A stretch of DNA of 64,000 nucleotides. Source: Anaeromyxobacteraceae bacterium (GTDB taxonomy: Bacteria; Myxococcota; Myxococcia; Myxococcales; Anaeromyxobacteraceae). The translations under genes and the position numbers were made by a program. A model generated the notes under the pieces. That model was not told the DNA's origin and ran no database searches. It was given only the letters and a program-made list of their open reading frames with translations. Shown here one piece after another: positions 7,423-36,226 of this stretch (within the stretch, counting starts at the first letter, position 1; each line of letters starts with the position of its first letter). The stretch spans positions 2,336,001 to 2,400,000 of the forward strand of contig JASGHJ010000002.1 in the NCBI GenBank assembly GCA_047602405.1. Reading direction: 5' to 3'.

Positions 7423-7926
7423 CTACGGGCAGGCCTTCAGGACGAGCCCCTCGCCGGTCACCCGGCCCGCGGCGCCCTGGAACCCGACGTCCACGGCCGT
7501 CAGCGTGACGGTGCCGTCCGACGCCTGGGTCCACGCGACGCTCCCGTCGGCCGCGTCGTACCCGAGCGTCGCGACGTCGCGCGCGTAGCCGGTCACCGCG
7601 CCGACCGCCTCGCCCGCCGCGGGCGCCGCCTTCGGCGCGGTCACCACCGCCTGGCTCGCGCCGCCCGCCTGCGGCGCGACCCGGAGCGCGAGGAGCGTCC
7701 ACTGCGTCTGCGGCACCGCGCTGATCGCGGCGCAGGTGTCCGGCTGATCCGAGACGTACAGCGCGAGCCCGTAGGCCGTCTGCACGGCCGCGCCGGAGAC
7801 CGCGTGCAGCTCGAGCCCGCCGACCGTGAAGCGAAGGTCCCCGTCCGGCCCTCCCTGCACCGGCGGGTTCGAGCACCCGGCGGCGAGGGCGCCCGCGAGG
7901 GCGAGGGCGGCGGGGGCGCGCTTCAC
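7423..7926 (-). CDS. Hypothetical lipoprotein
   Basis: GTG start 2 nt after the upstream stop; KR-hydrophobic-LAAGC lipobox; beta-rich mature part. Confidence 0.65.
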   Translation of the reverse strand: MKRAPAALALAGALAAGCSNPPVQGGPDGDLRFTVGGLELHAVSGAAVQTAYGLALYVSDQPDTCAAISAVPQTQWTLLALRVAPQAGGASQAVVTAPKAAPAAGEAVGAVTGYARDVATLGYDAADGSVAWTQASDGTVTLTAVDVGFQGAAGRVTGEGLVLKACP

Positions 7927-7928
7927 GC

Positions 7929-9458
7929 TCAGCGCAGCTCCGAGAAGCTGATCCGCACCTTGTGGCGGCCGTCGGGATCGCTCGCGATGACGCCGAGGTC
8001 CTCCACCTGCGCGACCTTGCCCTGGAACGTGTAGGGCGTGGTCCGGGCGGCGAGCGCGTCGACCTGGTCGGCGGGGAACGCGAAGTAGAGCGGGGCCGGG
8101 GTCCCGGCCAGCCAGTGCGAGAAGAGGTACATGACGAGCGCGTGCTCGTGGGAGTGGAACCCGCTCTTCCACTCGTTGCACTTCGAGGTGTCGCCGTCCG
8201 ACCAGTTGAAGTGCCCGCCGCTCCGGTTGATCGAGGCGTAGACCTCCTTCGCGGACTCCCGGCCGATCGTCCGATCGACGAAGTGGTCGACGAACGCCGG
8301 GGCCGTGACGGCGAGCGTGGGCAGCCAGGTCGAGGGGGCGTGCATCGCGAGCGTGGCGGTGAACTGGTCGGCCTCGGCGTAGATCCACCAGTCGGAGCCG
8401 TAGGCGGCGGTGCTGGACGAGGTGGGCCGGTTGCCCCACCAGCCGGTCAAGGGGTCCACCGCGAGCTGGACGTTCGCCGGCGCGTTCGTCGAGACGAACG
8501 CGGCGAACGGGTGATCGTCGAGCCGCTTGTCGATCTGCGTGAGCGCCCAGTAGGCCTTGAGGCCGTGGCCGAAGTCGGCGTGCCGGGAGCCGAAGACGCC
8601 CTTCGTCGCCGTGGTCCCCCACATGAAGCCGTCCTGGAAGAACCGATCCTTCATGGTGGTGCCGAGGGTGCGCAGGTCGCCGAGCAGCTGGGTGCGGCGC
8701 GCCGGGTCGGTGAGCGCCGGCTGCGCGAGCAGCATGAAGGCCGTCACGGGGTCCAGCTGGGCGACGAGCTCCCAGCTGCCGGCGCCGGACATGTACGCCT
8801 CCGCGGTGAGCCCCGCGTTCATGCCGTCCTTGATGCGCTGGTTCGGGGCGTCCCAGTACTTCGCCGGGTCGAAGAGGAGGTCGCGGGTGGCGAGCACCGC
8901 CGCCTCGGCGGCCGGGTCGCGGGTCACGTAGAAGTACGCGGCCGGCCCCATCACCGTGTACGAGAAGTCCTGGGCGAACTTGTCGCCCGTGCCGGACGGC
9001 GCGCCGGTCGCGTCGAGATCGGCATACCAGCCGCCCACCGCCGCGTCCCACGCGTGGTCCTCGAGGAACTTCGCGCCGGCGCGGGCGAGCCCCAGGGCCT
9101 GCTCGTCGCCGGTCATCAGGTACTCGACCGCGTACGCGAACGTCTGCCGCCCCATCATGCGGGGCTTGCGCGCGCCGTTCGAGGTGGTCGCGCCCATCAT
9201 CGTGCGGTAGGTGGGGAAGTTGCCGACGGGCGTGCCCTTCGCCGCGTCCTGCGCCCAGTACGGGGCGAGGTCGCCGGTGAGGTGGGCCGTCCAGCTCGCG
9301 GGGTCGAGGCCCGCGGGCGCCGCCGCCGCGGGCGGCGCGGTGTACGCGTAGGGGTCGGTCGAGTCCGGTCCCGCCTTCTTGTCGGAGCCGCACGCCACGA
9401 GCGCGAGGGCGAGGAGGAGGGCCGCGGGGCGGTGGAGCGTCGTCGTCATGGTCGTCAT
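7929..9458 (-). CDS. AGE-family (N-acylglucosamine/cellobiose 2-epimerase-like) lipoprotein
   Basis: RMMGRQTF, AWDAAVGGWY, FGH, WWIYAE, WKSGFH motifs; LVAC lipobox; start may be 9449. Confidence 0.7.
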   Translation of the reverse strand: MTTMTTTLHRPAALLLALALVACGSDKKAGPDSTDPYAYTAPPAAAAPAGLDPASWTAHLTGDLAPYWAQDAAKGTPVGNFPTYRTMMGATTSNGARKPRMMGRQTFAYAVEYLMTGDEQALGLARAGAKFLEDHAWDAAVGGWYADLDATGAPSGTGDKFAQDFSYTVMGPAAYFYVTRDPAAEAAVLATRDLLFDPAKYWDAPNQRIKDGMNAGLTAEAYMSGAGSWELVAQLDPVTAFMLLAQPALTDPARRTQLLGDLRTLGTTMKDRFFQDGFMWGTTATKGVFGSRHADFGHGLKAYWALTQIDKRLDDHPFAAFVSTNAPANVQLAVDPLTGWWGNRPTSSSTAAYGSDWWIYAEADQFTATLAMHAPSTWLPTLAVTAPAFVDHFVDRTIGRESAKEVYASINRSGGHFNWSDGDTSKCNEWKSGFHSHEHALVMYLFSHWLAGTPAPLYFAFPADQVDALAARTTPYTFQGKVAQVEDLGVIASDPDGRHKVRISFSELR

Positions 9459-9510
9459 CCTCGGCGCGAAGCCGCCGCGCGGGCAGCCACCCACCGTCCG
9501 TGCCTTGCCG

Positions 9511-11299
<1,789 letters not shown>

Positions 11300-11347
11300 T
11301 CGAGTTCTCTCCTCCGCCGCAGGGTATGTGCCGGGTACCCGTTCGCG

Positions 11348-11375
11348 TCAAGCGCCGCGACCACGCCGCGCTTGA
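11348..11375. promoter_or_regulatory. Inverted repeat / back-to-back -35 elements between divergent amylase genes
   Basis: tcaagcgc-N12-gcgcttga; TTGAAC-18-TAGGGT on + strand and TTGACG-17-CATACC on - strand. Confidence 0.4.
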
Positions 11376-11442
11376 ACCCGCTCGGCCTCCGCGCTTAGGG
11401 TCTCTCCGCGCACGACCGCGCCCCTCGAAGCCCGGAGGTCGC

Positions 11443-14086
11443 ATGTCCCCGAAGCTCCGCTCGTCCCTCGCGCTCCTCGCCGCCTGCGCGCTCGCCGCCT
11501 GCGGCTCGAGCGACTCGAAGAAGCCCGACCTCGAGCTGCACGTCCCCTCCCCCGCGTGGGAGGATCAGGTCGTCTACTTCGTCCTGACCGACCGCTTCGC
11601 CGACGGCGATCCCTCCAACGACGATCAGGGCAAGGACGAGTACGACCCCGCCGACGAGGCCAAGTACTCCGGCGGCGACCTGCGCGGCGTGCAGCAGAAG
11701 CTCGACTACATCCAGGGGCTCGGCGCGACCGCGGTCTGGATCACGCCGCCCGTCGCGGCGCAGTGGTGGGACCCGCTCGTCAAGTTCGGCGGCTACCACG
11801 GCTACTGGGCGCGCAACCACAGGAAGGTCGACGAGCACGTGGGCACGCTCGACGACTACAAGGCGCTCTCCGACGCCCTCCACCGGCGCGGGATGTACCT
11901 CATCCAGGACATCGTCCCGAACCACATGGGCAACTTCTTCACGTACCAGGGCGCGTACGATCCGGCCGACCCGACGAAGAACTTCGTGATGAACACGGCC
12001 TCGGTGCCGACCGCGAAGCCCGACCAGGCGCCCTTCGACCAGGACGACGTCCGCGTCGCCGCCCAGCGCACGGCGGGCATCTACCACTGGACCCCGCAGA
12101 ATCACGAACTTCACCGACCCGGTGCAGGAGAAGACCTGGCAGATCTCCGACCTCGACGACCTCGACACCTCGAACCCGGTGGTCCGCACCGCGCTGCGCG
12201 ACTCGTTCGGCTACTGGATCAAGGAGGTCGGCGTCGACGCCTTCCGGGTGGACACCGCGAAGTTCGTCGAGCACGAGTTCTGGAACGACTTCTTCCAGTC
12301 GAGCGACGCCGCCGCGCCCGGCATCAAGGCCGCGGCCGCCTCCACGGGCCGCAACGACTTCCTCGCGTTCGGCGAGGTGTTCGAGGTCTCCGACCCGCTC
12401 GCCGACGGCGGCGAGCAGAAGGTGGCGAGCTACCTCGGGACGGCCGGGGCGCCGGAGCTCCCGTCGGTACTGCAGTTCCCGCTCTACGAGGAGATCGGCC
12501 GCGTCTTCGCGACCGGCGGGCCGACCTCCTGGCTCGGCTACCGGCTCGGCAAGTTCACCGACGGCAGCTACTTCCCGGACCCGAAGCGCATCCCGACCTT
12601 CATCGACAACCACGACGTGCGCCGGTTCCTCTCCATCGGGACGCAGAAGGGCCTGTCCCAGGCGCTCGCGTTCATGTTCACCATCCCCGGCATCCCGGTC
12701 GTCTACTACGGCACGGAGCAGGCGTTCGCCGAGACCCGCGACGCCATGTTCAAGGGCGGCAACACGAAGAAGGGCGTCCGCGACGCGGACGCGTTCGACG
12801 CGACCGCGCCGGTCTACCAGGTGCTGAAGGACCTCGCGGCGCTGCGCAAGGCCAACCCCGCGCTCACCCGCGGCGCGACGGCGGTGATCGCCCAGAGCGA
12901 GACGCCCGGCGCCTTCGCCTACCGGCGCTCGTACCAGGGCGCCGACCTCCTCGTGCTCATGAACACGGCCGACGAGCCGGTGCTGTACTCGGACGTCTCG
13001 ACCGGGCTCGCGGCGGGAAGCCAGCTGCAGCTCCTCTACGGCCTCGAGGCGCCGGCGGAGCTGCCGGTCGTCGCCGCCGGCGGCAAGCTCACCACCATCC
13101 TGCCGGGCCGCTCGGTCGTCGTCGCGAAGGCGAGCGGCACCACCACCGTGCCGACGCCGACCGTGACGATCACGGTCGACACGGCCATCGAGGGGAAGAC
13201 CTTCACCGACGACGTCGTCATCTCCGGCACGGTCAGCCCCGCCGACGCGCCGCTCAGCATGATCGTCGACGGGCTCATCAACCAGTCGGTGGCCGTGACG
13301 CGCGGCCAGGGCGGCGCGTGGACCGCCACCCTCCCCGTGTCGCTCTTCCCGGTCGGGGTCGAGAAGCACTCGGTGGCCTTCTACTCCGCGGCCGCGAAGG
13401 TCTCCTCGCCGCGCTACCAGTTCACGACGAGCGTCGTGTTCGTGGGCAGCGTGCTCGAGGTGGACGACGCGACCGGCGACGACAAGGGGCCGGGCGGGAC
13501 GTACCTCTACCCGACCGACACCACCTTCGGCTCGCAGATGGACGTCGCGCACGTCACCGCCGAGGTCGGGGTCACGACCCTGAAGCTCAAGGTCCGGATG
13601 GCGGACTGGACGACGGTCTGGAACCCCTCGCTCGGGTTCGACCACGTCGCCTTCAACGTCTACTTCCAGGTGCCCGGGCAGGCGGGCAAGACGGCGCTGC
13701 CGAAGCTGAACGCGAGCGCGCCGGCCGGCTTCACCTGGCGGTACGCGCAGTTCACCTACGGCTGGTCGAACGCGATGTACAGCTCGACGGACGCGACCGC
13801 GGACGCGTACGGCGGCAACGTCCCGGCGCCCTCGGTGTCGGCGGACGCGGCCACGAAGACCGTCACGTTCACGTACAACCGGAACGCCTACGGGCTCGCG
13901 AGCTGGACCGGCGTGAAGGTCTGGATCGCGACCTGGGACTTCGACGGCATCGGCGCGTCGTTCCGGAAGATCTTCGCGACGGCGCACCCGTACGACATGG
14001 CCGGCGGCACCGTGAGCTGCAACGACACGGACGGCTGCCTGGATCCCCGGATCATGGACTCGGTCGGGCCGATCACCTTCCCGTGA
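11443..14086 (+). CDS. GH13 alpha-amylase lipoprotein with C-terminal glucodextranase DOMON-like domain; one frameshift near 12100
   Basis: GGAGG RBS, LAAC lipobox, YFVLTDRF, YHGYW, DIVPNH, DAFRVDTA, FGEV, FIDNHD, DATGDDKGPGGTYLYP; removing one A joins the two frames. Confidence 0.85.
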
Positions 14087-14093
14087 AACGCGA

Positions 14094-14121
14094 AGGGGGC
14101 CGCGCGGACGGGCGGCCCCCT
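14094..14121. terminator. Hairpin between convergent amylase and pullulanase genes
   Basis: agggggccgc-N8-gcggccccct. Confidence 0.5.
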
Positions 14122-14162
14122 CACCTGGCCTCTCCCCCCGCTGGCGCGGGGGGAGAGGGAGG
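14116..14162 (+). repeat. REP-like palindrome, family B
   Basis: ccccctcacc..cctctcccc..ggggagagggagg; related copy on - strand at 37809-37855. Confidence 0.7.
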
Positions 14163-14171
14163 CGTTCCGAT

Positions 14172-17100
14172 CTAGTTGGCAGTCCGGGTGTTGCACGGCA
14201 GGCCGGCGCCCTGCGCGCCCGCCTGGGCCTTCTCGAACACCGCGGTGGTGCGGGCCGGCACGGTGAACGAGGTGCCGGTCGCGGTCGCCGTCTTGACCAC
14301 CGCGTCGCCGCCGTTCGCCTGGATGGCCGCGAGGGCGAAGCCGCTCGCGCCGGGCACGGTCATCGTGTGCGAGACCTTGTCGGCGTTCAGGATGACCACG
14401 ATGGCCTCGCGGGTCGGGTCGAGGTCCGCGCCGGCGCAGGTCCCGTCGGTGATGGTCTGCACGACGACGCCCGGCACCTGCGCCGAGCCGCCGTTCTGGT
14501 AGTCGACGCGGGTCATGACGTCGGCCTTGGTGCGCAGGCGGAAGAGCGGCGAGCTCTTGCGCAGGCGGAGGAGCTCGTCGAAGTGCTGCTTCCCGGCCGC
14601 GATGTCGGCGGGCGCCGGGGCGATCGAGGCGTCGGCGAGCAGGGTCTGGATGAGCGGCCAGTTCGCCTGGTCCTTGCCCGCGTTGGGGAGCCCGCTCTTC
14701 CAGCCGTTCTTCTGGAACGTCCAGTCCACGCGGTTGAACCAGTCGCCCGAGTCGTACGAGTCCCGCTCCATCGACTTCGAGCGGAGGAGCTCGTCGGCCA
14801 TGTGGAAGAACGGGATCCCCTGGCCGAGCGCGACGGTGTCGAGGGCGAGGTTGGACATCCGCACCCGGTCCGCCATCGCCATCCCCGCGGGCAGCTTGTA
14901 CTGGAGGATGTCGAAGAGGGTCTGGTTGTCGTGCGCGGAGGCGTAGTTGATGGCCTCCTGCGGGTCGGCCGTGTAGCCCGCCGGCGCGCCGTTGTAGCCC
15001 ACCGTGCCGCCCACGTTCACGTGGTCGTCCCGCTGGAGGAGCATGAAGTCCTTCAGGTTGCCGGCCATCGCGACCTTGATGAGGTCGGTCGAGAGCAGGA
15101 GCTTCGCCTTCCAGTCGGTCGCGGTGTCGGCGGTGGCCTTGTCGTTCGGGTCGGTGTAGAGGCCGCTCGCGAAGCCCTGGTTCTTGCGGAGCGGGGCGCC
15201 GGCGTCGGTGGCGTTGTCGAACGGGCCGCCGCCGCGGACGGCGTCGCGGAGCCGGTCGTTGAAGGTGCCGACGCCGGTGCCGGCCATCGCGCGCTGGGTG
15301 GCGTTCACGCCGCGGGCCTGGGCCTGCACCTCGCCCATGTCCCAGCCCTCGCCGTAGACGTAGATCTTCGAGCCGTCCACGCCGTCGGCGGCGACCGTGA
15401 GCGCCTGGAGCGCCGCCTGCGCCGCGACGACGTCGGCCTTCATGTGGAGCCCCATGAGATCCCAGCGGAAGCCGTCGACCTTGTAGTCGCGCGCCCAGCG
15501 CACCATGGTGTCCACCATGAGCCGCCGCATCATGGCGTGCTCGCTCGCGGTGTTGGCGCAGCAGCTCGAGGTGAGGACGAAGCCGGTGTCGGCGTCGCGG
15601 CGGTGGTAGTAGCCGGGCACGACCTTGTCGAGGACCGACTTCGGCGAGAGGCCGGACGCGTTGGTGTGGTTGTAGACGACGTCCATCACGGTCCTGAGGC
15701 CGATGTCCGAGAGCCCCTTCACCATCTGGCGGAACTCGAGGATGCGGGCGGTCCCCTCGGCCGTGGAGGCGTAGCTGCCCTCCGGCACGCCGTAGTGGAG
15801 CGGGTCGTAGCCCCAGTTGAACCCGTCGACGAGGTGCAGCTGGTTCGCGATCACCTGCTGGCTCTCGGAGTCGCCCGCGAGGCTCTGGAAGACCTCCCAG
15901 ATCGTCATCGCGGTGGTCTTGTACTGGTTGCAGAGCGCGGTCTCGGCCGCGTTCGAGGGCGGCACCGCCGTGCAGAGCTTCGCGTAGGTGTCGGGCACGT
16001 CGACCCGCGCCGCCGGGTCCTCGAGCACGGTCGCGATGTCGAACACCGGCAGGAGGTGGGCGTGGGTGAGGCCCGCCTGCGCGAGCGCCTGCAGGTACGC
16101 GAGGCCGTTCGACTGCGCCTGGCCCTGCGGCGTGACGAAGCCGAGGTACTTGCCGCGCGCGGCCGCCGGCGCGGTCGCGTCGGACTGGCTGAAGTCGCGG
16201 ACGTGCGTCTCGTAGACGACGACGTCCTCCGGCGCCGCGAGGGCGGGCTTCGCGAGCGCGTCCCAGCCGGCGGGCTTCAACGCCGCGTCGGAGAGGTCGA
16301 CGAGCTGCGAGTAGAGCGAGTCGGTCGAGAGGCTCACCGCGTACGGATCGGTGACCGTGAGCGTCTCGATGGCGTCGGTCTCCCAGTGGTAGACCTTCAC
16401 GACGTACCGGTAGAACTTGCCCTTCAGCGCCGCGGTCCCGGTGTACGACCAGACGCCCTTCGCGTCCGCCGTCAGGTCGTGCGACTCCTCCTCGGCCTTC
16501 GCGGCCGAGTAGATCTTGAGCGTGACCGCCTGGGCGGTGGGGGCCCAGAGCGAGAGCGTGGGGTTGCCGCCCGCCCAGGTGATCCCGAGCGGCTCGCCGT
16601 TGGCGTAGAGCGCGTCGATCGCGAACGGCGCCTGGACCTTCGTCGCCTGGAAGAGCGACCCGTCCGCCTTCTTCGCGACCGCGACGAGCTGCCCCTTGAG
16701 CGCGGCCTTCGCGGCCGCGTCGGCGGCGCCTGCCCAGCCGACGTCGAACGCCTTGAAGCCGGCGAGGTGGGGCACGGCGTCGAGGATCGCCTGCGGGACC
16801 GCGGCGGTGCGCGGGGTGAGCGTCACCGCGGTGCCGCCGGTGACCGCGCCGTCCGCGACCTTCACGGCGGCGGTGTCGGAGGTGCGCAGCTCGAACTGGG
16901 TGGCGGACGCGTCGGTGACGTTCCAGAGCACGATGCCCGGCGCGACGAGGTGCGCCGCGGCCCCCGCGAGCTCGACCACGCCGGCCTTGCGCGGCTTCGT
17001 CGAGATCGCCGGCGACCCGGTGACCATGAAGATGACGTTGCCTTGGACGGTCGGATCCCAGTCGGTGATGTCCGGGCCGGGGTCCTTCGTGTCGCCCTTG

Positions 17101-17714: not shown

Positions 17715-18154
17715 GCAGGGCTCCGGTCGGGGTTTCGGGCACCGGCATAGAGCCTCTCCCGCCGCGACGCAACCGGGGGTCTCACCTCCCCCGCGGCTGC
17801 GCCGCAGCGCGCGGGGCTCGGGCCGCCCGTTCGAGCCCCGCCGCACCGAGGAGGTGAGGCTCGGGCGCGCCGCCCCGTTCAGGTACATCGGTCGATCGGC
17901 GCGGCTCGCCCCACCACCTCGTTGCTCGCGACCCAGGCAACCAACTTCGACACGCTGCGGCATCACACCGCGCGAGCCTCGAGAACGCGTCGTCTCCGCG
18001 CTCCGCTGGTCGATTTGTTGGCTTGTGGAGATCCGGACCCGGCGGTAAACAACCAAACGCGTTCGACACCAGGGTCATTCTCGCGCTGTCGCCCTCCCTG
18101 CGGCATCGCGAGACACGGCTCGGGAGGACATGGTTGCCGCAGTCGCTTCTCCGG

Positions 18155-19762: not shown

Positions 19763-19777
19763 ACCAGGAGACTCGAG

Positions 19778-20599: not shown

Positions 20600-20625
20600 T
20601 TGCCCCGCAGCACGTGGAGACGCCG

Positions 20626-23964: not shown

Positions 23965-24037
23965 AGAGTGATGCACAGCAAGACCGCGTCCGGGCAGGTC
24001 AGTCCGGGCGTGCTACCCCGCAGCAAGGAGTCCGATC

Positions 24038-24968: not shown

Positions 24969-24995
24969 GCGCCTCGGACCGGAGTAGCCTGCGAG

Positions 24996-25030
24996 GAGCC
25001 GGCGGGGACTTCCCGCCGGCTCTTCTTCTT
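24996..25030 (+). terminator. Rho-independent terminator
   Basis: gagccggcggg-loop-cccgccggctc followed by ttcttctt. Confidence 0.75.
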
Positions 25031-25046
25031 CCCGGAGCACCGCCCC

Positions 25047-26285: not shown

Positions 26286-28096
26286 ACGTCCTCGGCATCT
26301 CGGCCTACTACCACGACGCGGCGGCGTGCCTGCTCGTGGACGGCGAGCCGGTCGCGGCCGCGCAGGAGGAGCGCTTCAGCCGCGTGAAGCACGACGCGCG
26401 CTTCCCCTCCCGCGCCATCGCGGCCTGCCTCGCCCAGGGTGGCCTCGTGGCCGGTGACCTCGACGCGGTCGCCTTCTACGACAAGCCGTTCCTGAAGCTC
26501 GAGCGGATCCTCGAGACCCACCTCGCCGTCGCGCCCCGGGGGCTCGCCGGCTTCCTCGCCGCCATCCCGGTCTGGATCGGCGAGAAGCTCTGGGTCCCCG
26601 ACGCGGTGGAGCAGGCGCTCGGCTTCCGCGGCCCGGTGCTGTTCCCCGAGCACCACCTCTCCCACGCGGCCTCTGCCTTCTTCCCCTCCCCCTTCGACCG
26701 GGCCGCCTTCCTCACCGTCGACGGCGTGGGCGAGTGGGCGACCGCGTCGTGGGGCGTCGGCCGGGAGGGCAAGGTCGAGCTCCAGGCCGAGCTCCGCTTC
26801 CCCCACTCGCTCGGGCTCCTCTACTCGGCGTTCACGACCTTCTGCGGGTTCCGCGTCAACTCCGGCGAGTACAAGCTGATGGGGCTCGCCCCGTACGGCG
26901 AGCCGCGCTACGCGCGCGCCATCCGGGAGCACCTCCTCGACCTCAAGCCCGACGGCTCCTTCCGGCTCGACACCTCGTACTTCGGCTACCTCGGCGGCCT
27001 CTCGATGACGAACGCCCGCTTCGAGCGGCTCTTCGGCGGTCCGCCCCGCCGGCCCGAGGCCCCGCTCACGCGGCGCGAGCTGGACCTCGCCCGCTCGGTG
27101 CAGGAGGTGACCGAGGAGATCGTGCTGCGCATGGCCGCGCACGTCCGCAGGGAGACCGGCGAGCGGGACCTGTGCCTCGCCGGTGGGGTCGCGCTCAACT
27201 GCGTCGCGAACGGGAAGCTCCTGCGCGCCGGCACGTTCGACCGGCTCTGGATCCAGCCCGCCGCGGGCGACGCCGGCGGCGCGCTCGGGGCCGCCTTCGC
27301 GGCCGCGCACCACCACCTCGGCGTCCCGGCGCGGCCAAAGGGCGGCCGCGACCGGATGCGGGGCGGCTTCCTCGGGCCCTCCCACGCGGACGACGCGATC
27401 GCGGCGTTCGTGCGGGAGCGCGGGCTGCCGCACGAGCGGCTCCCGGAGGGCGCCCTCCTCGACCGCGTCGCCGCGGCGCTCGAGGCGGGGCAGGTCGTGG
27501 GCTGGTTCCAGGGGCGCATGGAGTTCGGCCCCCGCGCGCTCGGGAACCGCTCCATCCTGGCGGACCCGCGTGCCCCCGACATGCAGCGCCGGCTCAACCT
27601 CGCCATCAAGTTCCGCGAGGGCTTCCGGCCGTTCGCGCCGGCGGTCCCGGCGGAGCGGGCCGCCGACTGGTTCGACCTCGACGTGCCGAGCCCGTACATG
27701 CTCCTCGTGGCGCAGGTGAAGGCGAGCCGGCTGCGCGTCCCCACCGCGGAGGAGGCCGCGCGCGAGGGGCTCGACCGCCTCTCGGTGGCGCGCTCGGAGA
27801 TCCCCGCGGTCACGCACGTGGACGGCTCGGCGCGCGTCCAGACCGTCTCGCGCGAGGACAACCCGCGCCTCCACGCGCTCCTCGAGCGGTTCGGGGCCCG
27901 TACCGGGTGCCCGGTGCTCGTGAACACCTCCTTCAACGTGCGGGGCGAGCCGCCGGTCGAGTCGCCGCTCGACGCGTGGCGCTGCTTCATGAGCACCGGG
28001 ATGGACCTCCTCGTGCTCGGCGATCACCTGCTCGTGAAGGCGGACCAGCCGGCGCTGCCACAGACCGAGCGGAGGGGGCCCCGTGCGCTGGATTGA
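26282..28096 (+). CDS. O-carbamoyltransferase (NodU/CmcH/SxtI family)
   Basis: LGISAYYHDAAA, QEERFSRVKH, EHHLSH, DGVGE, GEYKLMGLAPYG, AGGVALNC, EFGPRALGNRS, KFRE, NTSFN. Confidence 0.95.
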   Translation: MNVLGISAYYHDAAACLLVDGEPVAAAQEERFSRVKHDARFPSRAIAACLAQGGLVAGDLDAVAFYDKPFLKLERILETHLAVAPRGLAGFLAAIPVWIGEKLWVPDAVEQALGFRGPVLFPEHHLSHAASAFFPSPFDRAAFLTVDGVGEWATASWGVGREGKVELQAELRFPHSLGLLYSAFTTFCGFRVNSGEYKLMGLAPYGEPRYARAIREHLLDLKPDGSFRLDTSYFGYLGGLSMTNARFERLFGGPPRRPEAPLTRRELDLARSVQEVTEEIVLRMAAHVRRETGERDLCLAGGVALNCVANGKLLRAGTFDRLWIQPAAGDAGGALGAAFAAAHHHLGVPARPKGGRDRMRGGFLGPSHADDAIAAFVRERGLPHERLPEGALLDRVAAALEAGQVVGWFQGRMEFGPRALGNRSILADPRAPDMQRRLNLAIKFREGFRPFAPAVPAERAADWFDLDVPSPYMLLVAQVKASRLRVPTAEEAAREGLDRLSVARSEIPAVTHVDGSARVQTVSREDNPRLHALLERFGARTGCPVLVNTSFNVRGEPPVESPLDAWRCFMSTGMDLLVLGDHLLVKADQPALPQTERRGPRALD

Positions 28097-28508
28097 CGAC
28101 GTGCGCGACGGCCTCACCGGCCTGGATCAGTCCCCGCGCGCGCTGCGGCGGTTCGGGCTGCTCGTCGGCGCGGTGGTGCTCGGGCTCGGGGCGTGGCTGC
28201 TCTGGCGCGGCCACGCACCGGGGAGGCCGCTCGTCGCGCTCGGGCTCGCGCTCCTGACCCTCGGCCTCGCCGCGCCGCTCGTGCTCGGGCCGGTCCACAC
28301 CGCCTGGATGGCCCTCGCCCTCGCGCTCGGGTGGGTCGTCTCCCGGGGGCTCCTCACGATCGTCTTCTTCCTGGCCGTGACGCCGCTCGCGCTCCTCGCC
28401 CGCCTCGCGGGGAAGCGCTTCCTCGACCTCCGCCCCGATCCTGCCGCGCCGACCTACTGGAGCCGGCGCGCGCCGGACCGGCCGTCCCGGCTCGACAAGA
28501 TGTACTAG
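28083..28508 (+). CDS. SxtJ-family membrane protein
   Basis: LRRFGLLVG, WMALALALGWV, FFLAVTP, TYW, terminal DKMY; follows the carbamoyltransferase. Confidence 0.8.
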   Translation: MRWIDDVRDGLTGLDQSPRALRRFGLLVGAVVLGLGAWLLWRGHAPGRPLVALGLALLTLGLAAPLVLGPVHTAWMALALALGWVVSRGLLTIVFFLAVTPLALLARLAGKRFLDLRPDPAAPTYWSRRAPDRPSRLDKMY

Positions 28509-28535
28509 AGTGGCGGCCGTCTCCAGGGAGCCCGC

Positions 28536-28694
28536 TTGTCCAAGATCCGCATCGTCGGCGAGTACCTCGCCTTCCTCCGCGAGCAGAAGAAGTGGTGGAT
28601 CCTGCCCATCGTGGTGGTGCTCCTCCTCCTCGGCGTTCTCATCGTCCTCACGAAGGGCAGCGCGCTCGCCCCCTTCATCTACGCGCTGTTCTAG
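28536..28694 (+). CDS. DUF5989 / SxtK-like small membrane peptide (52 aa; absent from ORF track)
   Basis: AGGGAG RBS, TTG start; MSKIRIVGEYLAFLREQKKWWILPIVVVLLLLGVLIVLTKGSALAPFIYALF*. Confidence 0.85.
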   Translation: MSKIRIVGEYLAFLREQKKWWILPIVVVLLLLGVLIVLTKGSALAPFIYALF

Positions 28695-28697
28695 GCC

Positions 28698-30924
28698 GTG
28701 GCTCGCAAGAAGCCGCCCTCGGATCGTCACCGGCCGGCGCGGCCTGCGCCCGCCGCGCCTCCCGCCCCGCCCTCGCCCGCGCGGATTCGGGGCTTCCGGC
28801 TCTTCACCGTCGCCCTGCCGCTCCTCGCCCTCGCGCTCCTCGAAGGCGGGCTGCGCCTCGCCGGCTACGGGTTCGCGCCCGGGTTCACGCGGCCCTGCGA
28901 GACGGCCGGGATCCCCTCGTACTGCGAGAACCCGGACTTCACGAGGCAGTTCTTCCCGCCGGCGCTCGCCCGGCGGCCGAGCGCCTTCGCCTTCCCGCGC
29001 GAGAAGGGCCCGCGCACCGCGCGGGTGTTCGTCGTCGGCGAGTCCGCGGCGCAGGGCGATCCGGAGCCCGCCTTCGGCGTCGCGCGCTTCCTCCAGGCGA
29101 TGCTGGAGGCCGCGCTGCCCGGCGCGAAGGTGGAGGTCGTGAACGCGGGCGTGGTCGCGGTGAACTCGCACGCGCTCCTGCCGATCGTCCGCGACCTCGC
29201 CGGGCGCGGCGGCGACGTGGTCGTCGTCTACGCCGGCAACAACGAGGTCGTGGGCCCCTACGGCAACGGCACCGTGCTCACCGGGCGGCAGCCACCGCTC
29301 GGCCTCGTCCGCACCGCGGTCGCCCTTCGCTCGACGCGCATCGGCCAGCTCCTCGCCTCGGCGCTCCTCCCGCACGGCGAGGCGAGCCCGGAGGCCTGGC
29401 GCGGCATGGAGATGTTCCTCGGACAGCAGGTCCGGGCAGACGATCCGACCATGGCGAGCATCTACGCCGCATGGGAGGCGAACCTCCGCGACCTCGTCCG
29501 CGCCGCGCGGGACGGAGGCGCGCGTGTCGTCGTCGGCACGATGTCCACCCGGCTGCGGGGCTTCGCGCCTTTCGCCTCGCTCCACCGGCCCGGGCTCGCG
29601 GCCGCCGACCTCGCCCGCTGGGATGCGGCCTTCGCGCGCGGCGGGGCGGAGGCAGCGGCCGGCCGCGCGGCCGAGGCCCTCGCGGCCTTCCGCGAGGCCG
29701 CCGCCGTCGACGACGGCCACGCCGAGCTCGCCTACCGGATGGCGGAGGCGACCTGGGCCCTCGGCGATCGCGCCGCGGCGCGCGCCCTCTACGCGCGCGC
29801 CCGCGACCTCGACACCCTGCGCTTCCGCGCGGACACACGCGAGAACGCCCTCGCCCAGGAGGTGGCCCGCGCCGCCGGCGACGGGGTCGCGCTCGTGGAC
29901 GGGGAGGCGGCGGTGGACGCGGCCGACCCCGAGGGGCTCGCGGGCGGAGCGCTGCTCTGGGAGCACGCCCACCTGACGCCGGAGGGGAACCACGCGCTCG
30001 CCGCGGCGCTCCTCCCGGAGGTCATCGCCGCGCTGCCGGCGGGCCTGCGCCCCGACCGCGTCCCCGCCCCGCTCCCGTTCGAGGCCTGCGCGGCGCGCCT
30101 CGCGTTCACGGGGTTCGACCGGGCGCGCGTCGCGCGCGAGGTGCTGAACCGCCTCTCCCGCCCGCCGTTCACGGCGCAGCTCGACCACGCCGCCCAGGTC
30201 GCGGCCGTCGAGGCGCTCCGCGCGCGCGGGGCGACCGAGCCGCCCGGGGAGACCGAGGCCGCCTACCGGCGCGCGCTCTCCGCCGCCCCGGACGATCCCT
30301 GGCTCTGGCGCGGGCTCGCGCGCCTGTTCGACGCCCAGGACGACGCCGCCGTGCGCGTGGGCGGCCGCCCGGAGGGGCGCTCCGTCGAGCCGCTCCGCCA
30401 GGCCCTCCAGCTCTTGCCCGACGCCGCCGACCTCCGCCAGCTGCTCGCCGAGGCGCTCCTGCGGGTGGGGCGCCTCCCCGAGGCCGCCCGGGAGGCCGAG
30501 GAGCTCCTCCGGCGCCGCCCTGACCACGCGGGCGGCCACTACACGCTGGGCTCGATTCTTGCTCCGGCAGAACCGCGCCGGCGACGGGAAGCCTCACCTC
30601 GAGCGGGCGCTCGCGCTCGACCCGGGCCAGCTCGGCGCCCACCTCGAGCTCGCGAACCTCGCGGCGATGCGGGCCGACGGCCCCGAGGCCGCGCGCCACC
30701 TCGAGATCGCGGTCCGGCAGCGCCCGGACGACGCGGCCGTGCAGGGCCTGCTGGTGCGGCTCTACGAGCTGCAGGGCCGGCGCGCGGAGGCGGCCGTGAA
30801 GGCGCGGGAGGGCGCGGAGCGCCTGCGCGCCGCGGGGAGCGCCGCGGACGCCGCCGCGCTCCTCGACCGGGCCCGGGCGCTGGAGGCCGGCGGCGCCCCT
30901 ACCCCTTCACGGACCCCGCGGTGA
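28698..30924 (+). CDS. Membrane-anchored SGNH/GDSL-fold protein with TPR repeats; one frameshift near 30557
   Basis: TM ending LEGGLRL; blocks VGESAAQG, NAG, YAGNNE, EHAHL; TPR units continue in the +1 frame to 30924. Confidence 0.8.
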
Positions 30925-31782
30925 GGCCGGAGACCAGGTACTCTGCAGGTAGAAGAACAGGGCCATGATCGGCAGGGACACGATGATCGAGCCCGCCGCG
31001 AAGTAGCCCCACTGCTGCTGGAAGCCGCCCACGAAGAAGCGCAGCCCGACCGGCGCCGTGTACATGCTCTCCTGGTCCATGAAGGTCGCGGCCAGGATGA
31101 ACTCGTTCCAGGCGGTCATGAACGAGAAGAGCGCGGTGATCGCGATTGCCGGCTTCGCGAGCGGCAGCACCACCGACCAGAAGATCTTCCCGGCGCTCGC
31201 GCCCTCGATGACCGCCGCCTCCTCGAGCTCCTTCGGGATGGTGTCGAAGTAGCCCTTCAGCATCCAGACCGAGAACGGGATGGAGGTCGTCGAGTAGACG
31301 ATGATGAGGCCCCAGTGGCTGGAGCCGAGCCCGAGCCACTGCACGATGATGATGTAGAGCGGGATGAGGGTCAGCACGCCCGGGAACATCTGCGAGACGA
31401 GGAACGACATCATCCCGAAGCGCCGGCCGGGGAACTTGAAGCGGCTGAAGGCGTAGGCCGCGGTGCAGGCGAGCGCGACGCCCACGATCGTCGAGGCGAT
31501 GGCGATGAGGACGCTGTTCGCGATCCAGCGTCCGAAGGGCTGGTCGGCCATCACGGACGTGAAGTTCGAGAACGACCAGGCCTGCGGCCAGGGCATCACC
31601 GCCCGGAGCCGGTCGAGGAAGCCCGGCTCGGCCGGGAGATCCGCGATCGCGAGGCTCTGCTTGCCCGAGAACGCGATCGAGACGACCCAGAGCACCGGGT
31701 AGACCGTGTAGAGGACCGTCAGGATCAGGAAGGTGTGGAGGACCCAGTGCGGGGTGCGCTCCTCGCGGCGCGAGGTGGCCAT
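30899..31782 (-). CDS. malG: Maltose/maltodextrin ABC permease MalG-like; one base missing near 30942
   Basis: AAYAFSRFKF, QMFP, KGYFDTIPKELEEAA; canonical YLVSGLTAGSVKG* tail lies in the adjacent frame. Confidence 0.85.
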
Positions 31783-33807
31783 CTAGATCCCCTCCGTCGC
31801 GCGGGTGACCCGGTTCTGGAAGTTCCCGTAGACGAGCAGGATCCCGAAGATCACCGTCGCGTACGCCGCCGCGTAGCCGTACTGGTACTTCTGGAACGCG
31901 AACTTGTACGCCTGCGTGATCAGGATCTCGGTCGCGCCGTTCGGCTCGCCGCCGGTCACGAGGAAGATGATGTTGAACATGTTGAAGGTCCACACCACCG
32001 ACAGGATCACGGCGGGCACGAGCGCGGGCCTCAGCGACGGGAGCGTGATGGCCTTGAACTGCTGCCAGCGCGTGGCGCCGTCGACCCGGGCGGCCTCGTA
32101 GAGGTCGGCCGGGATCGACTGCAGGGCGCCGAGCGACACCACCATCATGAACGGGAACGAGAGCCAGCCGTTCGTGGCGAAGGCGGTGAGGAAGCTCGTG
32201 AACGGCGTCTCGAACCAGCTCAGCGGCGCGATCCCGAACATCGCGAGGACCTGGTTCACCACCCCGAACTGCCGGTGGAACATGCCCTTCCAGATGAGCG
32301 CGGTGATGTAGTTCGGCATCGCCCACGGGAGGATCAGCACCACCCGGTAGAAGGGCCGGAGCGCGAGGTCCTTCGTGTTGAGGACGAGCGCGAGGAGCAG
32401 GCCGAACGAGACGCCGAACGTCACGTTCGTCACGGTCCAGGCGACCGTGAAGAAGAAGGTCCAGTAGAAGTTGAGGTAGTTCCAGACCGGCGCGCCGTCG
32501 GCGCCCTTCGTGATGATCGAGAAGTCGCCGAGGATCTCGAGGTAGTTCTTGAAGCCCACCCAGAGCTCGGAGAAGGGCTTCGACTGGTTCGTGAGCGTCT
32601 GCTCGGTGAACGACAGCGCGATGCCGTAGAAGAACGGGAAGAAGACGAGGACCAGCGTCCCGATCATCGCGGGCGCGATGTACGCATAGGCCTGCCGGTT
32701 GACCCGCAGCGCCTTCCCGGTCGAGGCGGCGAAGCCGAGGCCGAAGAACGCGAGGAGCGCGAGGCCCGTCACGGCGGCGGCCCACAGCGTGGAGGCGCCG
32801 CCGGACGTGAGCCCCGCGAGCTCGCGGGCGGCGCCGGCCGGGTCGAGCTGCCCGGCCCCGGTCAACAGGCCCCGCGGCTGGCGCATGAGGTCCCGGTCCC
32901 AGAGGCCGGGCTTCAGCGGCGGCTCGACCGCGACCCCGGCCGCCTGGAGCAGCCCGGTGATCTCGGCCCCGGCGCCCTGCGCCTGCACCGCGATGCGCCC
33001 CTGCGCGGCCTCGCCGGCGGCGGCGAGCGCGCCGCGCGCCGCGAACGCGTGGCCGAGGGCGGCGAGCGCGAAGCACGCGACCGCGGTCGCGACGAGCGGC
33101 CAGCGGCCCCGGACGAAGCGGCCCGCGACGGCGAAGGCGGCGACGCCGGCGAGGATGGCCACGAGGGCCGCCACCGGCGACGCCGGCGGCTGCGCCGGGT
33201 ACGGCGCGGTCGTGAGCTCGACCATGCCGGCCACGTCGCCGTCGCGCTCGAGCGGCGACGCGAGCGAGCGGCTCCCCCCGGCGCCCACGTCGACCTCGAG
33301 CTCCCGCTGCACCGCTCCGCCCTCGCGGTTGGCGTTCACCGAGCCCTTGAGGCGCTGCGCGCGGTCGTAGGTGGCCTTCTCGTCCCTCGAGAGCCGGCGC
33401 GGCGCCGCCTGGTCGCCCACGTCGCCGGGCGCGGTGGAGGCCTCGAGGTGGGCCCCGGAGAGGAGCACGATGCGCGCGTGGGTGCCGGGTGGCTGGGCCT
33501 TCTGCCAGCCGTCGACGGCGGCGCGGAGCTTCTCGCCGTCGTCGCCGGTGCGGGCGGCGAGCTCCGAGAGCGCGCCGAGGGAGACGATGGCGCGCCGGGT
33601 GTCGGCGTCGCGGTCGAGCTGGGCGTGGGCGCCCCGGAGCAGGAGCGCGCCACCGCCCACGGCGACGAGCAGCCCTAGGGCGACGCCCCAGAGGAGGCGG
33701 GCGTAGGCGGTGCGGTCGTCCCTCGACTTCGCGGCTTCGCCGCTGCGCTCGGGACGAGCGGGTTCGGAGGGACCGGACGGACGGGCCGTCACCGGTGAGC
33801 TGGCCAA
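31783..33807 (-). CDS. malF: Maltose/maltodextrin ABC permease MalF-like with long N-terminal extension
   Basis: LILPWAMPNYITALIW, GALQSIPADLYEAARVDGA, FNMFNII. Confidence 0.85.
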   Translation of the reverse strand: MASSPVTARPSGPSEPARPERSGEAAKSRDDRTAYARLLWGVALGLLVAVGGGALLLRGAHAQLDRDADTRRAIVSLGALSELAARTGDDGEKLRAAVDGWQKAQPPGTHARIVLLSGAHLEASTAPGDVGDQAAPRRLSRDEKATYDRAQRLKGSVNANREGGAVQRELEVDVGAGGSRSLASPLERDGDVAGMVELTTAPYPAQPPASPVAALVAILAGVAAFAVAGRFVRGRWPLVATAVACFALAALGHAFAARGALAAAGEAAQGRIAVQAQGAGAEITGLLQAAGVAVEPPLKPGLWDRDLMRQPRGLLTGAGQLDPAGAARELAGLTSGGASTLWAAAVTGLALLAFFGLGFAASTGKALRVNRQAYAYIAPAMIGTLVLVFFPFFYGIALSFTEQTLTNQSKPFSELWVGFKNYLEILGDFSIITKGADGAPVWNYLNFYWTFFFTVAWTVTNVTFGVSFGLLLALVLNTKDLALRPFYRVVLILPWAMPNYITALIWKGMFHRQFGVVNQVLAMFGIAPLSWFETPFTSFLTAFATNGWLSFPFMMVVSLGALQSIPADLYEAARVDGATRWQQFKAITLPSLRPALVPAVILSVVWTFNMFNIIFLVTGGEPNGATEILITQAYKFAFQKYQYGYAAAYATVIFGILLVYGNFQNRVTRATEGI
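33717..33756 (-). repeat. REP-like palindrome, family A, inside the malF 5' coding region
   Basis: cgtccc-gagcg-[gcggcgaagccgc]-gaagtcga-gggacg on - strand, read as RPERSGEAAKSRD. Confidence 0.7.
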
Positions 33808-33861: not shown

Positions 33862-35061
33862 CTACTTCTTGTGGAGCGTGGCGACGTCCTTCTCGATCGC
33901 CTTCTGCGCGGTGCCGAGGGCGTCCTTCGGCGCGGTGCCGCCGGCGATGATCTTGTTGAGCGCGGTCGTGGCCGGGCTCCACATCATCGTCATCTCGGGC
34001 AGGTTGGGCATCGGCACCGCCACGTCCACCTGCTTGCGGAACGCGGAGAGCACCCAGTCGTTCTTCACGGCCGCGTCGTCGTAGACCGCCTTCACCGCGG
34101 GCGTCTGCCGCCCCTCGAGCGCCATGATCTTCGCGGCCTCGACGTCGGTGATGAACTTCACGAACTCGAAGGCGGCCTCCTTCTGCTTGCAGGGCGCCGT
34201 CACGAACGCGCCCTCGACCGTCATCCAGGGCCGCATCGGCTGGCCGCCGGCCTCGGTGATCTTGGGCAGCGGGGCGAGCCCGTAGTCGATGTCCTTCGAG
34301 ACCTCGCCCAGGAACCAGGGCCCGGTGAAGACGATGCCGGCCTTGCCCTCGTTGACGAGCGCGGTGATGAGCGCGACCGAGGGCTCCGCGGGCATGAAGC
34401 CGGCCTTCGTCCAGTCGACGAGGAGCTGCATCGCCTTCACGTTCGGCGCGGCGTCCATCGTCGGCTGCGCGCCGGGGCCGAAGACCGCGCCGCCGAAGCC
34501 GTTGATCATCGAGGCCGCGTAGTAGAAGTCGCCGTACGCCCAGGCGAGGCCGAAGCGGCCCGCCGCCTTGTTCGTGAGCTCCTTGCCCACCTTCACGAAA
34601 TCCGCCGTGGTGGCCGGCGGCGTCTTCACGAGCTTCTTGTTGTAGAGCATCGTGATGACCTTGTAGTTGAACGGCAGCGCCCACAGGCTCCCGCGGTAGG
34701 TCAGCGCCTGGACGGTGGTGGGGATGAACTTCCCCTTCACGGCGTCGTCCACGTAGAAGTCGATGGGCTCCACCGTGTTGCCCGCCGCGATCCAGCCGCC
34801 CATCCGGTCCTGCGCGTAGATGAAGACGTCCGGCCCCTTCCCGCGCGGCACGGCCGCCGAGATCTTGTCGGCGAAGGCGTCGAACGGCACCGCGAGCGGC
34901 GAGACCTTCACCTTCGTGGTCGGCTTCGCGTTGTAGGTCGCGACCACCTTCTCGAACGCGGTCTTCTCCGCGCCGCGGTAGGCGTGCCACACGACGAGGT
35001 CCTGCGCCGAGGCGACGCCGGCGAGGGCGAGGCCGAGCACTGCGAGGGCGAGCTTCTTCAT
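33862..35061 (-). CDS. malE: Maltose/maltodextrin-binding protein
   Basis: Signal peptide, KGPDVFIYAQDRMG, YNKKLV, FTGPW, PMPNLPEM. Confidence 0.85.
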   Translation of the reverse strand: MKKLALAVLGLALAGVASAQDLVVWHAYRGAEKTAFEKVVATYNAKPTTKVKVSPLAVPFDAFADKISAAVPRGKGPDVFIYAQDRMGGWIAAGNTVEPIDFYVDDAVKGKFIPTTVQALTYRGSLWALPFNYKVITMLYNKKLVKTPPATTADFVKVGKELTNKAAGRFGLAWAYGDFYYAASMINGFGGAVFGPGAQPTMDAAPNVKAMQLLVDWTKAGFMPAEPSVALITALVNEGKAGIVFTGPWFLGEVSKDIDYGLAPLPKITEAGGQPMRPWMTVEGAFVTAPCKQKEAAFEFVKFITDVEAAKIMALEGRQTPAVKAVYDDAAVKNDWVLSAFRKQVDVAVPMPNLPEMTMMWSPATTALNKIIAGGTAPKDALGTAQKAIEKDVATLHKK

Positions 35062-35097
35062 GGCGTTCGTGCTCCGGGTTCCGTGGTGAAGACTCGA

Positions 35098-35128
35098 TCC
35101 GCCCTTCGACGGGCTCGGGGCGGGCGGA
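35098..35128. repeat. Short REP-like palindrome (family A related) between malK and malE
   Basis: tccgcccttcgacgggctcggggcgggcgga. Confidence 0.55.
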
Positions 35129-35134
35129 ATTCGA

Positions 35135-36226
35135 TCAGTCGCCGATGCGGGCCTGGCTCTCCGCGTCGAACAGGTGCAGCGCGTCGAGCTCGAGCTTCAC
35201 CTCGAGCTTCGCGCCGATGGGCGCCGGGCGGTGCGGGTCCTGCTTGAAGACGAGCGCGTCCTCGCCGGCCTTCGCGTGGACCACCACCTCATCGCCGAGG
35301 GGCTCCGCGATCTCGACCGTGACCGGCACGGTGACCGTCGGCCCGCCCCGGCCGCTCCGGCCCTCGGGCAGCACGTTCTCGGGCCGCACGCCCACCACGA
35401 CCTTCGCGCCGGCCCGGCCGGCGAGCGCCGCGGCGGTGGCGCGCGGGAACGGGATCCGCACGCCGGCGGCCGCGATGGCGCCGCCCTCGATCACCCCGTT
35501 CACGAAGTTCATGGGCGGCGAGCCGATGAACGCCGCGACGAACAGGTTCGCCGGGTGCTCGTACACCTCGAGGGGCGTGCCCACCTGCTGGAGCTTCCCG
35601 GCGTGGAGCACCGCGATGCGGTGCCCCATGGTCATCGCCTCGATCTGGTCGTGCGTGACGTAGATGCTCGTGACCTCCAGGCGGGCCTGGAGCTTCTTGA
35701 TCTCCGCCCTCATCTGGACGCGCAGCTTGGCGTCGAGATTCGAGAGCGGCTCGTCGAACAGGAAGACCGCGGGCTTGCGCACGATGGCGCGGCCGAGGGC
35801 GACCCGCTGGCGCTGGCCGCCGGAGAGCTCCTTGGGCTTGCGGGTGAGGAGCTGGTCGATGGCGAGGATCTGCGCGGCCTCGTCGACGAGCCGGTCCATC
35901 TCCGCCTGCGGGGTCTTCCGGATGCGCAGGCCGAACTCGAGGTTCTCCCGCACCGTCATGTGCGGGTAGAGCGCGTAGCTCTGGAACACCATCGCGATGT
36001 CGCGGTCCTTCGGCGGGACCTCGTTCACGACCTTGTCGCCGATGGAGATGGTGCCGCCGGTCGCGTCCTCGAGCCCGGCCACCATGCGGAGCGCGGTGGA
36101 CTTCCCGCAGCCCGAGGGGCCGACGAGGACCATGAACTCCTTGTCCTTGATCTCGAGGTCGAGCCCCTCGATGACGCTGACCTGACCGAACCGCTTCTGG
36201 ACGTTCTTCAGGACGACTGCTGCCAT
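35135..36226 (-). CDS. malK: Sugar ABC transporter ATPase
   Basis: GPSGCGKST, VFQSYALYPH, LSGGQRQR, FLFDEPLSNLD, YVTHDQ, FIGSPPMN. Confidence 0.92.
   Translation of the reverse strand: MAAVVLKNVQKRFGQVSVIEGLDLEIKDKEFMVLVGPSGCGKSTALRMVAGLEDATGGTISIGDKVVNEVPPKDRDIAMVFQSYALYPHMTVRENLEFGLRIRKTPQAEMDRLVDEAAQILAIDQLLTRKPKELSGGQRQRVALGRAIVRKPAVFLFDEPLSNLDAKLRVQMRAEIKKLQARLEVTSIYVTHDQIEAMTMGHRIAVLHAGKLQQVGTPLEVYEHPANLFVAAFIGSPPMNFVNGVIEGGAIAAAGVRIPFPRATAAALAGRAGAKVVVGVRPENVLPEGRSGRGGPTVTVPVTVEIAEPLGDEVVVHAKAGEDALVFKQDPHRPAPIGAKLEVKLELDALHLFDAESQARIGD

Follow-up and report, generated by a model that had tools for sequence, protein, structure and literature searches.

In this work, we analysed a window of 64,000 nucleotides from an Anaeromyxobacteraceae bacterium (assembly GCA_047602405.1, contig JASGHJ010000002.1, positions 2,336,001 to 2,400,000) and describe a locus at 7423-36226 of this window that very probably serves the use of alpha-glucans. 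The locus encodes four GH13 glycosidases, an ATP-binding cassette (ABC) importer of the MalEFGK type and a predicted outer-membrane beta-barrel of an unannotated family, which stands between a secreted DOMON-like protein (DOM1) and two lipoproteins (LP2 and LP3). On balance, we favour the scheme of a Mal-type system in which the barrel would act as a channel that is neither LamB nor dependent on TonB, and in which lipoproteins would bind the substrate in the manner of SusE/F. The best evidence for the role of the barrel is its exchange with LamB at the same place in the locus.

Exchange of the barrel with LamB

A scan of GTDB yielded 27 loci with the barrel, in which absences of neighbouring genes are due to contig ends. 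DOM1 precedes the barrel in 25 of them and LP2 follows it in 23; GH13 genes are present in 24 and Mal genes in 16, and the three loci lacking GH13 are contigs shorter than 4 kb. An earlier note, made from the window sequence, had proposed a capture-degrade-import locus for alpha-glucans. The barrel and the lipoproteins are syntenic with the amylases in related genomes, and the proposal is well supported by this conserved synteny.

We then examined 355 Myxococcota genomes of at least 90% completeness, including G240, which is flagged as unpublished; kin genomes are not independent, and no P values are given across genomes. Profile matches to the barrel were found in 112 genomes and to DOM1 in 127. 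DOM1 is present in all 112 barrel genomes and lies directly upstream of the barrel in 103. For at least 80 of the 112, a MalE orthologue is located no more than 16 kb from the barrel. Close MalE orthologues occur in 102 genomes, of which 87 possess the barrel, 8 the LamB version and 7 neither. The locus is patchy in the window's own genus (1 of 22 other genomes). Full-length fusions with DOM1 at the N-terminus of the barrel were identified in P0016, P0037, P0202, P0251 and L059.

All 15 genomes with DOM1 but no barrel were inspected. In seven of them a LamB gene lies directly after malKEFG-DOM1, and the encoded protein is full-length (Pfam E 5e-97 to 2e-113). In one further genome the contig stops after DOM1 and another contig begins with LamB, and in two DOM1 stands alone. 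The barrel itself is negative in the LamB family test: it has no PF02264 match, its profile scores a LamB of these slots at -2.7 bits, and its model has 22 strands. LamB is 18-stranded. Barrel and LamB are unrelated by profile, and their exchange looks like non-orthologous displacement. No LamB match was found in any of the 15 barrel genomes of the two nearest families (f1 and f8), nor in genus g33, where all 21 genomes have the barrel. A genome-wide exclusion of barrel and LamB was also considered and was rejected, as 38 of the 112 barrel genomes carry both.

The LamB version of the locus encodes a secreted stand-alone PUD protein (PF03714, 160 residues) after lamB, at the place of LP2 and LP3 (L086:10612-11091; also L087, L088, L089, L096 and L100). 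Judging from this gene order, a starch-binding companion seems to accompany either channel. In three barrel-negative genomes (G252:C59:174432-180851, G262:C1:1150890-1157358 and G318:C44:111439-116693), a weak LamB-like match and a more distantly related MalE homologue lie about 5 kb apart, possibly another channel variant.

The barrel has no family match in Pfam or NCBIfam and no sequence match in the PDB, nor did the profiles of the barrel, LP2 and LP3 yield any significant PDB match. When 55 members of the barrel family were compared with Pfam, just three weak OMP_b-brl matches and one DUF4325 match were obtained, with no PF00593 or plug match. The family includes 154 representatives at 50% identity and at least 757 clusters at 90%, which are named only 'hypothetical' or similar; ESM Atlas gave DUF6029 as a look-alike (0.95). 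By their source names, homologues also come from Acidobacteriota, Candidatus Schekmanbacteria and Candidatus Eisenbacteria. L101 (51% GC), a distant contig and the one context obtained outside Myxococcota, contains a malG-like permease, DOM1 running into the barrel, and a second DOMON-like protein (DOM2) fused to GH13. Among 20 hand-picked distant barrel regions, 12 contain GH13 or Mal genes. In four regions from Myxococcaceae (L080-L083), DOM2 comes next after the barrel, and LP2 and LP3 are missing.

Barrel model, putative binding partners and proposed mode of uptake

The barrel predicted in the earlier note was recovered as a beta-barrel in an AlphaFold model (618 residues, 55 sequences, pLDDT 86, pTM 0.87). 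By the DSSP list, the model comprises 22 long amphipathic strands connected alternately by long loops and short turns, and the chain terminates in an aromatic residue. Strand 1 starts about 5 residues past the predicted signal cleavage site, and therefore the chain has no room for an N-terminal plug. Alignments to TonB-dependent barrels start after the plugs of the latter. Conserved Trp, Arg and Asp residues gather in loops 2-4, 7 and 8, where R351 and R352 are invariant, and these loops may narrow the pore. Fold searches neither show nor exclude a known family for the barrel.

DOM1 is a member of PF09985 and matches glucodextranase (1ug9). We considered DOM1 as an obligatory plug of the barrel and rejected this role, since DOM1 persists beside LamB or without any porin. 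A periplasmic helper fits better, by analogy with MalM, which has this role in E. coli.

The start of LP2 overlaps the stop codon of the barrel gene. In the LP2 model (pLDDT 90), the top 16 structural matches of residues 238-384 are all starch- or glycogen-binding modules or their enzymes, and this predicted C-terminal domain superposes on the CBM20 domains 2z0b and 8x8k with Z 7.9 and 7.2 and root-mean-square deviations (rmsd) of 2.7 and 2.6 Å over 101 and 96 residues, respectively. It has no PF00686 match; K341 and N360 are invariant, and W357 is nearly so. LP3 has many invariant aromatic residues, and its named look-alikes are mostly CBM48, CBM26, CBM20 and SusF/X25 clusters. Both proteins carry a choice-of-anchor X motif, whose 33 columns are the sole match between the LP2 and LP3 profiles. 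LP3 is internally duplicated in two related loci (584-607 residues; L033:13367-15118 and L078:12775-14595), as would be expected of modular binding proteins.

We then propose the following scheme for the use of alpha-glucans. At the envelope, the lipid-anchored amylases and the pullulanase would cut starch or glycogen at both alpha-1,4 and alpha-1,6 bonds, while LP2 and LP3 would hold the substrate close to the barrel. Maltodextrins would diffuse through the barrel, without TonB, to MalE and then to MalFGK. A type II secretion system with genes elsewhere in the genome may bring the lipoproteins to the surface, and the breakdown would be completed in the cytoplasm by the GH77 and phosphorylase enzymes, whose genes are unlinked.

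It is tempting to go further and to regard the barrel as a new class of carbohydrate channel. As such, it would have 22 strands and no plug in its chain, would import large or branched alpha-glucan fragments without TonB, and would be gated by its loops or by a DOMON partner. Together with lipoproteins of CBM20-like type and lipid-anchored amylases, it would form a surface complex resembling Sus, which would have arisen independently in Myxococcota, in Acidobacteriota and in candidate phyla. We put this wider proposal forward tentatively, as a minority view of our own data.

Several observations weigh against the scheme that we favour. A 22-strand barrel is wide for passive uptake, and barrels of more than 18 strands may need a plug, according to the part of PMC6340704 available to us. 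The structural matches of the barrel, with Z of at most 15.9 and identity of at most 13%, are generic and do not point toward sugar porins, with maltoporin ranking 21st. The CBM20 match of LP2 is middling (Z <8; best Foldseek E 9e-4) and is joined by no Pfam CBM match. CBM20 site 1 comprises a Trp-Lys-Trp set, the first Trp of which is missing in the window LP2 and present in only some homologues. In 8 of the 20 hand-picked distant barrel regions, the 11-20 kb retrieved contain neither GH13 nor Mal genes. In five of the 15 genomes with DOM1 but no barrel, malKEFG-DOM1 and the amylases are retained while the slot contains no porin, and the barrel is dispensable there. A LamB-family match elsewhere in each of these five counts in favour of the slot exchange, whereas such a match in 38 of the 112 barrel genomes counts against it. 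Moreover, the seven LamB loci group as a single clade on the DOM1 tree (a quick tree with a midpoint root; support 99), and therefore the exchange is one event and not seven.

One alternative is that the barrel is a scaffold or an export channel, which displays or sheathes the DOMON and CBM lipoproteins, while the sugars enter through other porins. The barrel is wide and lacks a plug of its own, in parallel with MtrB, which sheathes MtrA, and with the ushers that export pilins; indeed, MtrB (Z 14.0, 390 aligned residues) and the ushers FimD and PapC (Z up to 15.9) are among its top, tied structural matches. Such a function would also suit the translational coupling of LP2 to the barrel, LP2 being the next gene in 23 of the 27 loci, and the existence of DOM1-barrel-LP2 units without amylases nearby. 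However, the same slot is occupied by a sugar channel, LamB, with DOM1 remaining, and the barrel of L080-L083 occurs without LP2 or LP3. The genome also encodes, outside the locus, a type II secretin GspD that scores above the cut-off and could serve lipoprotein export, although T2SSK gave no match. We consider a scaffold or exporter unlikely.

We regard as clearly less probable that the barrel is one half of a split energised transporter, with DOM1 as a plug in trans or fused, and that uptake of long dextrins is TonB-dependent as in SusC. The 22 strands are the number found in TonB-dependent transporters, the lowest rmsd values of the barrel (4.3-4.5 Å over 337-371 residues) are to such barrels, and in five proteins DOM1 is fused N-terminally, the position of the plug. 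Yet DOM1 is kept beside the 18-stranded LamB and in porin-less loci, and it matches 1ug9 and belongs to PF09985, not to a plug family. PF00593 and plug matches number 0 in the 55 members, and no tonB or exbBD is found among the scanned genes of the locus.

Gene inventory of the locus

The host genome (6.16 Mb, 74% GC) is 98% complete. Genes were labelled from lists of open reading frames (ORFs) and codon-position GC, backed by Pfam and NCBIfam matches; the Pfam scan of the window comprised 28 ORFs or ORF pieces, a subset of the ORFs of the window. The nearest relative found, G010, is 93% identical and served as the reference for intact reading frames. LP1, the AGE-like gene and GH13a lie on the minus strand, followed by GH13b on plus and the pullulanase on minus; GH13d, DOM1, the barrel, LP2, LP3 and DOM2 then lie on plus, ahead of a four-gene cassette and of malG-F-E-K on minus.

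7423-7926, minus: LP1, a 167-residue lipoprotein with a relaxed lipobox and no Pfam match; accessory, also in L001, L012 and L022
7929-9458, minus: AGE/cellobiose-2-epimerase-like lipoprotein (PF07221), with the conserved Arg and both candidate catalytic His motifs kept
9511-11299, minus: GH13a, a MalS-like alpha-amylase lipoprotein; frameshift at about 10838, intact in G010 at 594 residues
11443-14086, plus: GH13b, an alpha-amylase lipoprotein with a C-terminal PF09985 domain; frameshift at about 12100, 880 residues and intact in G010
14172-17714, minus: pullulanase-type alpha-1,6-glucosidase lipoprotein with two PUD stretches, N2 and CBM48; TIGR02103 above cut-off
18155-19762, plus: GH13d, an alpha-amylase lipoprotein with a relaxed lipobox; top PDB match 1wza, alpha-amylase A
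19778-20599, plus: DOM1, a secreted PF09985 (glucodextranase C-terminal, DOMON-like) protein
20626-22563, plus: outer-membrane barrel of an unannotated family, 645 residues; 22 strands predicted, no N-terminal plug
22563-23964, plus: LP2, a lipoprotein with an Ig-like and helical N-terminal part and a predicted CBM20-like C-terminal domain; frameshift at about 22930, 467 residues and intact in G010
24038-24968, plus: LP3, a Trp-rich two-domain lipoprotein predicted to resemble CBM48/26/20; frameshift at about 24574-24577, 308 residues and intact in G010
25047-26285, plus: DOM2, a second secreted PF09985 protein, with a C-terminal extension
26282-30920, plus: inserted cassette of the following four genes
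26282-28096, plus: carbamoyltransferase
28083-28508, plus: SxtJ-like protein
28536-28694, plus: DUF5989 protein
28698 to about 30920, plus: SGNH/TPR protein; frameshift at about 30559
30899-31782, minus: malG-like permease; frameshift at about 30942, close to the 3' end
31783-33807, minus: malF-like permease
33862-35061, minus: malE-like periplasmic binding protein, without a lipobox
35135-36226, minus: malK-like ABC ATPase

The inventory of the earlier note held up in most respects. The four GH13 enzymes have Pfam or NCBIfam matches and all four conserved catalytic regions, with the Asp, Glu and Asp present in each. The pullulanase scores 1157 bits against TIGR02103 (cut-off 698), and GH13a, although MalS-like, is under its NCBIfam cut-off. 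Solved relatives of the catalytic part of GH13b are PDB 43wj and 9x8f (E 6e-182), and of its C-terminal part 9x81. The two DOMON-like secreted proteins belong to PF09985, with a further PF09985 domain on GH13b, and LP1, LP2 and LP3 lack a Pfam match, in agreement with their listing as proteins of no recognised type. Lipoboxes had been claimed for eight proteins: six match the strict pattern, while the products of 7423-7926 and 18155-19762 have the cysteine only in a relaxed box. The strict pattern occurs in 195 of 5120 called genes of the genome (3.8%) and in 6 of 12 tested locus genes (P ~2e-6).

The malK-E-F-G genes were confirmed by Pfam and NCBIfam, and the top natural PDB matches of the malE-like protein are maltose- or maltodextrin-binding proteins. 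For the importer as a whole, the match is at the family level, with scores under the NCBIfam equivalog cut-offs. The absences listed in the earlier note were likewise borne out: LamB has 0 matches in the whole genome, and so does SusD (PF07980), for which a Bacteroides control was positive; the genome has eight matches to TonB-dependent receptors, all outside the window, and its GH77 (2) and phosphorylase (1) genes are elsewhere too.

The AGE-family protein was confirmed with PF07221 at 30.5 bits (cut-off 23.4). It is far under the cut-offs of the named AGE and CE families and keeps the GH and GFH His motifs. Close orthologues were found in 21 of the 355 genomes, all of them barrel-positive, and 13 lie within 16 kb of the barrel. 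A lipobox on an AGE-superfamily protein is unusual; one idea is that it may be a periplasmic epimerase acting on maltodextrin ends.

This protein bears on whether the locus might serve a different pool of alpha-glucosides (dextran or isomalto-oligosaccharides, cyclodextrins, or epimerised glucans), with starch as a secondary substrate. PF09985 is named after glucodextranase, the AGE-like epimerase tracks the locus, and MalE is under the NCBIfam MalE cut-off and scores slightly higher against GanS. The pullulanase above its cut-off, the MalS-like and AmyA-like amylases, the maltodextrin-binding PDB matches and the predicted CBM20-type folds all argue instead for starch-type glucans, and we judge such another pool to be quite improbable as the main substrate.

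The absence of a regulator, also claimed in the earlier note, stands for the 28 scanned ORFs and pieces, and the genome has three ROK genes outside the window; other types of regulator are not fully excluded. Four relatives carry a ROK-family regulator between the pullulanase and GH13d (L010:5676-6995, L012:5839-7035, L013:7571-8734 and L015:5849-7045), where the window has an intergenic region of 440 bp. The missing regulator is lineage-specific. In another relative (G030, L004:3672-4994), a gene with a weak amylo-alpha-1,6-glucosidase match (PF06202) lies directly upstream of DOM1-barrel-LP2-LP3.

The earlier note treated the ~29 kb as one locus. The gene inventory is real, but the 4.6-kb carbamoyltransferase cassette within this span is an insertion. 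It was found in one of the 16 related loci that reach malG and is common to G010; on the first count it was rejected as a core part, and it probably lies outside the system. An independent contig of run X1 bridges the cassette, whose GC is 76% vs 68-71%. In 11 of the 16 loci, DOM2 lies within about 400 bp of malG. At this junction, relatives have other DNA inserted (a second sugar ABC set in L011:15547-18558; also L029:15790-17717 and L033:16303-17072). The two operons converge here, and the space between them looks like a site of insertion. The gene set of the cassette resembles the sxtI-J-K-L block, and such cassettes likely modify a surface polymer. The flanks of the locus (816-7390 and 37202-40533) seem unrelated to it and encode an HDOD protein, a pyridine-nucleotide oxidoreductase-rhodanese fusion, a haemolysin-III family membrane protein, an acyltransferase and oligopeptidase F.

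Rfam gave 0 matches. No sigma-70 promoters were found in 7000-26500, and terminators there are at chance level. Three metatranscriptome runs contain short contigs of relatives covering DOM1, the barrel, LP2, LP3 and malE. Because the word shares are low (<0.1) and DNA can occur in such libraries, we do not count these contigs as expression.

Six frameshifts (at about 10838, 12100, 22930, 24574-24577, 30559 and 30942), missed in the earlier note, are absent from G010. They are of 1-2 bases and are probably assembly errors. One of the sites lies within GATC, and at another the relative has GATC; long reads are known to carry errors at methylated motifs. A locus in decay is the least credible reading of all: it would account for six broken frames in 29 kb, and no reads of the exact strain were found (best share of words 0.23), but all six are 1-2 base indels intact in the 93%-identical G010, in-frame stops are lacking, the codon bias is not eroded, and the extra base at 24574 is absent from the contigs of 4/4 runs (relatives, other strains).

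Comparison with known systems

According to the available part of PMC13543919, starch uptake in Gram-negative bacteria is usually described as proceeding through LamB with an ABC importer or through SusC/D with TonB; 'Myxococc' has 0 occurrences in that part. Myxobacteria degrade starch with the GH13 enzymes AmyM, AmyC, CoMA, AmyAc and AmyCf (PMC10528286, PMC12093494, each as far as available). These are single-enzyme studies, and the word 'transporter' occurs 0 times in the main text of PMC12093494 as available. In the literature searched, we found no description of the locus or of the barrel, though one may exist in subscription papers or closed supplements; the terms searched had no matches in three supplementary files of PMC10875029.

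Together, our results point to a third outer-membrane solution for starch uptake, carried by roughly one in three of the Myxococcota genomes sampled, and provide a barrel family of at least 757 'hypothetical' clusters with a testable function. A plugless 22-stranded barrel, if true, would bear on the idea that such barrels need a plug (PMC6340704, in its available part). If the scheme is true, it would also explain how amylase-secreting myxobacteria take up the products, which may include those of prey glycogen.

The locus shares with the enterobacterial Mal/Pul scheme, as outlined in the available part of PMC13543919, a binding protein with an ABC importer, a pullulanase-type lipoprotein and a MalS-like amylase. 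In both, the transport cluster also contains the gene of an outer-membrane channel, here a putative one, and some relatives carry a real LamB in this locus. It differs in having an unrelated, larger barrel in place of LamB, four glycosidases that are all predicted lipoproteins, and additional DOMON, CBM20-like and AGE-like proteins; GH77 and phosphorylase are unlinked, and some relatives have a ROK gene. The claim in the earlier note that the parts are unlike those of Mal/Pul is right only at the outer membrane, for the barrel, the DOMON and AGE-like proteins and the CBM-like lipoproteins; the ABC transporter and the pullulanase, as well as one of the amylases, are homologous to parts of Mal/Pul.

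The Bacteroides SusCDEFG system and other polysaccharide utilisation loci (PULs) similarly have a lipoprotein amylase and non-catalytic lipoproteins of starch-binding fold, predicted in our case, encoded directly after a large outer-membrane barrel. The present locus, however, has neither a plugged TonB-dependent transporter nor SusD, and uptake across the inner membrane would be by the ABC importer. The PUL-like logic suggested in the earlier note was not upheld: the locus is Mal-like, with a probable channel and an ABC importer, and is probably not TonB-based. With no LamB, and with no SusC or SusD, it fails the defining tests of both systems.

With the TonB-dependent barrels FyuA, Cir and BT1763, our barrel shares the 22 strands, predicted here, and the lowest rmsd; it differs from them in the lack of an N-terminal plug in the chain and of any sequence match, with an identity of up to 10%. 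DOM1, DOM2 and the tail of GH13b belong to the same family as the C-terminal domain of glucodextranase (PF09985, 1ug9). In glucodextranase this domain is an appendage of an enzyme, while DOM1 is a free secreted protein or is fused to the barrel. We conclude that the novel core of the locus is an uncharacterised barrel family, in a system that would work like Mal with Sus-like surface binders.

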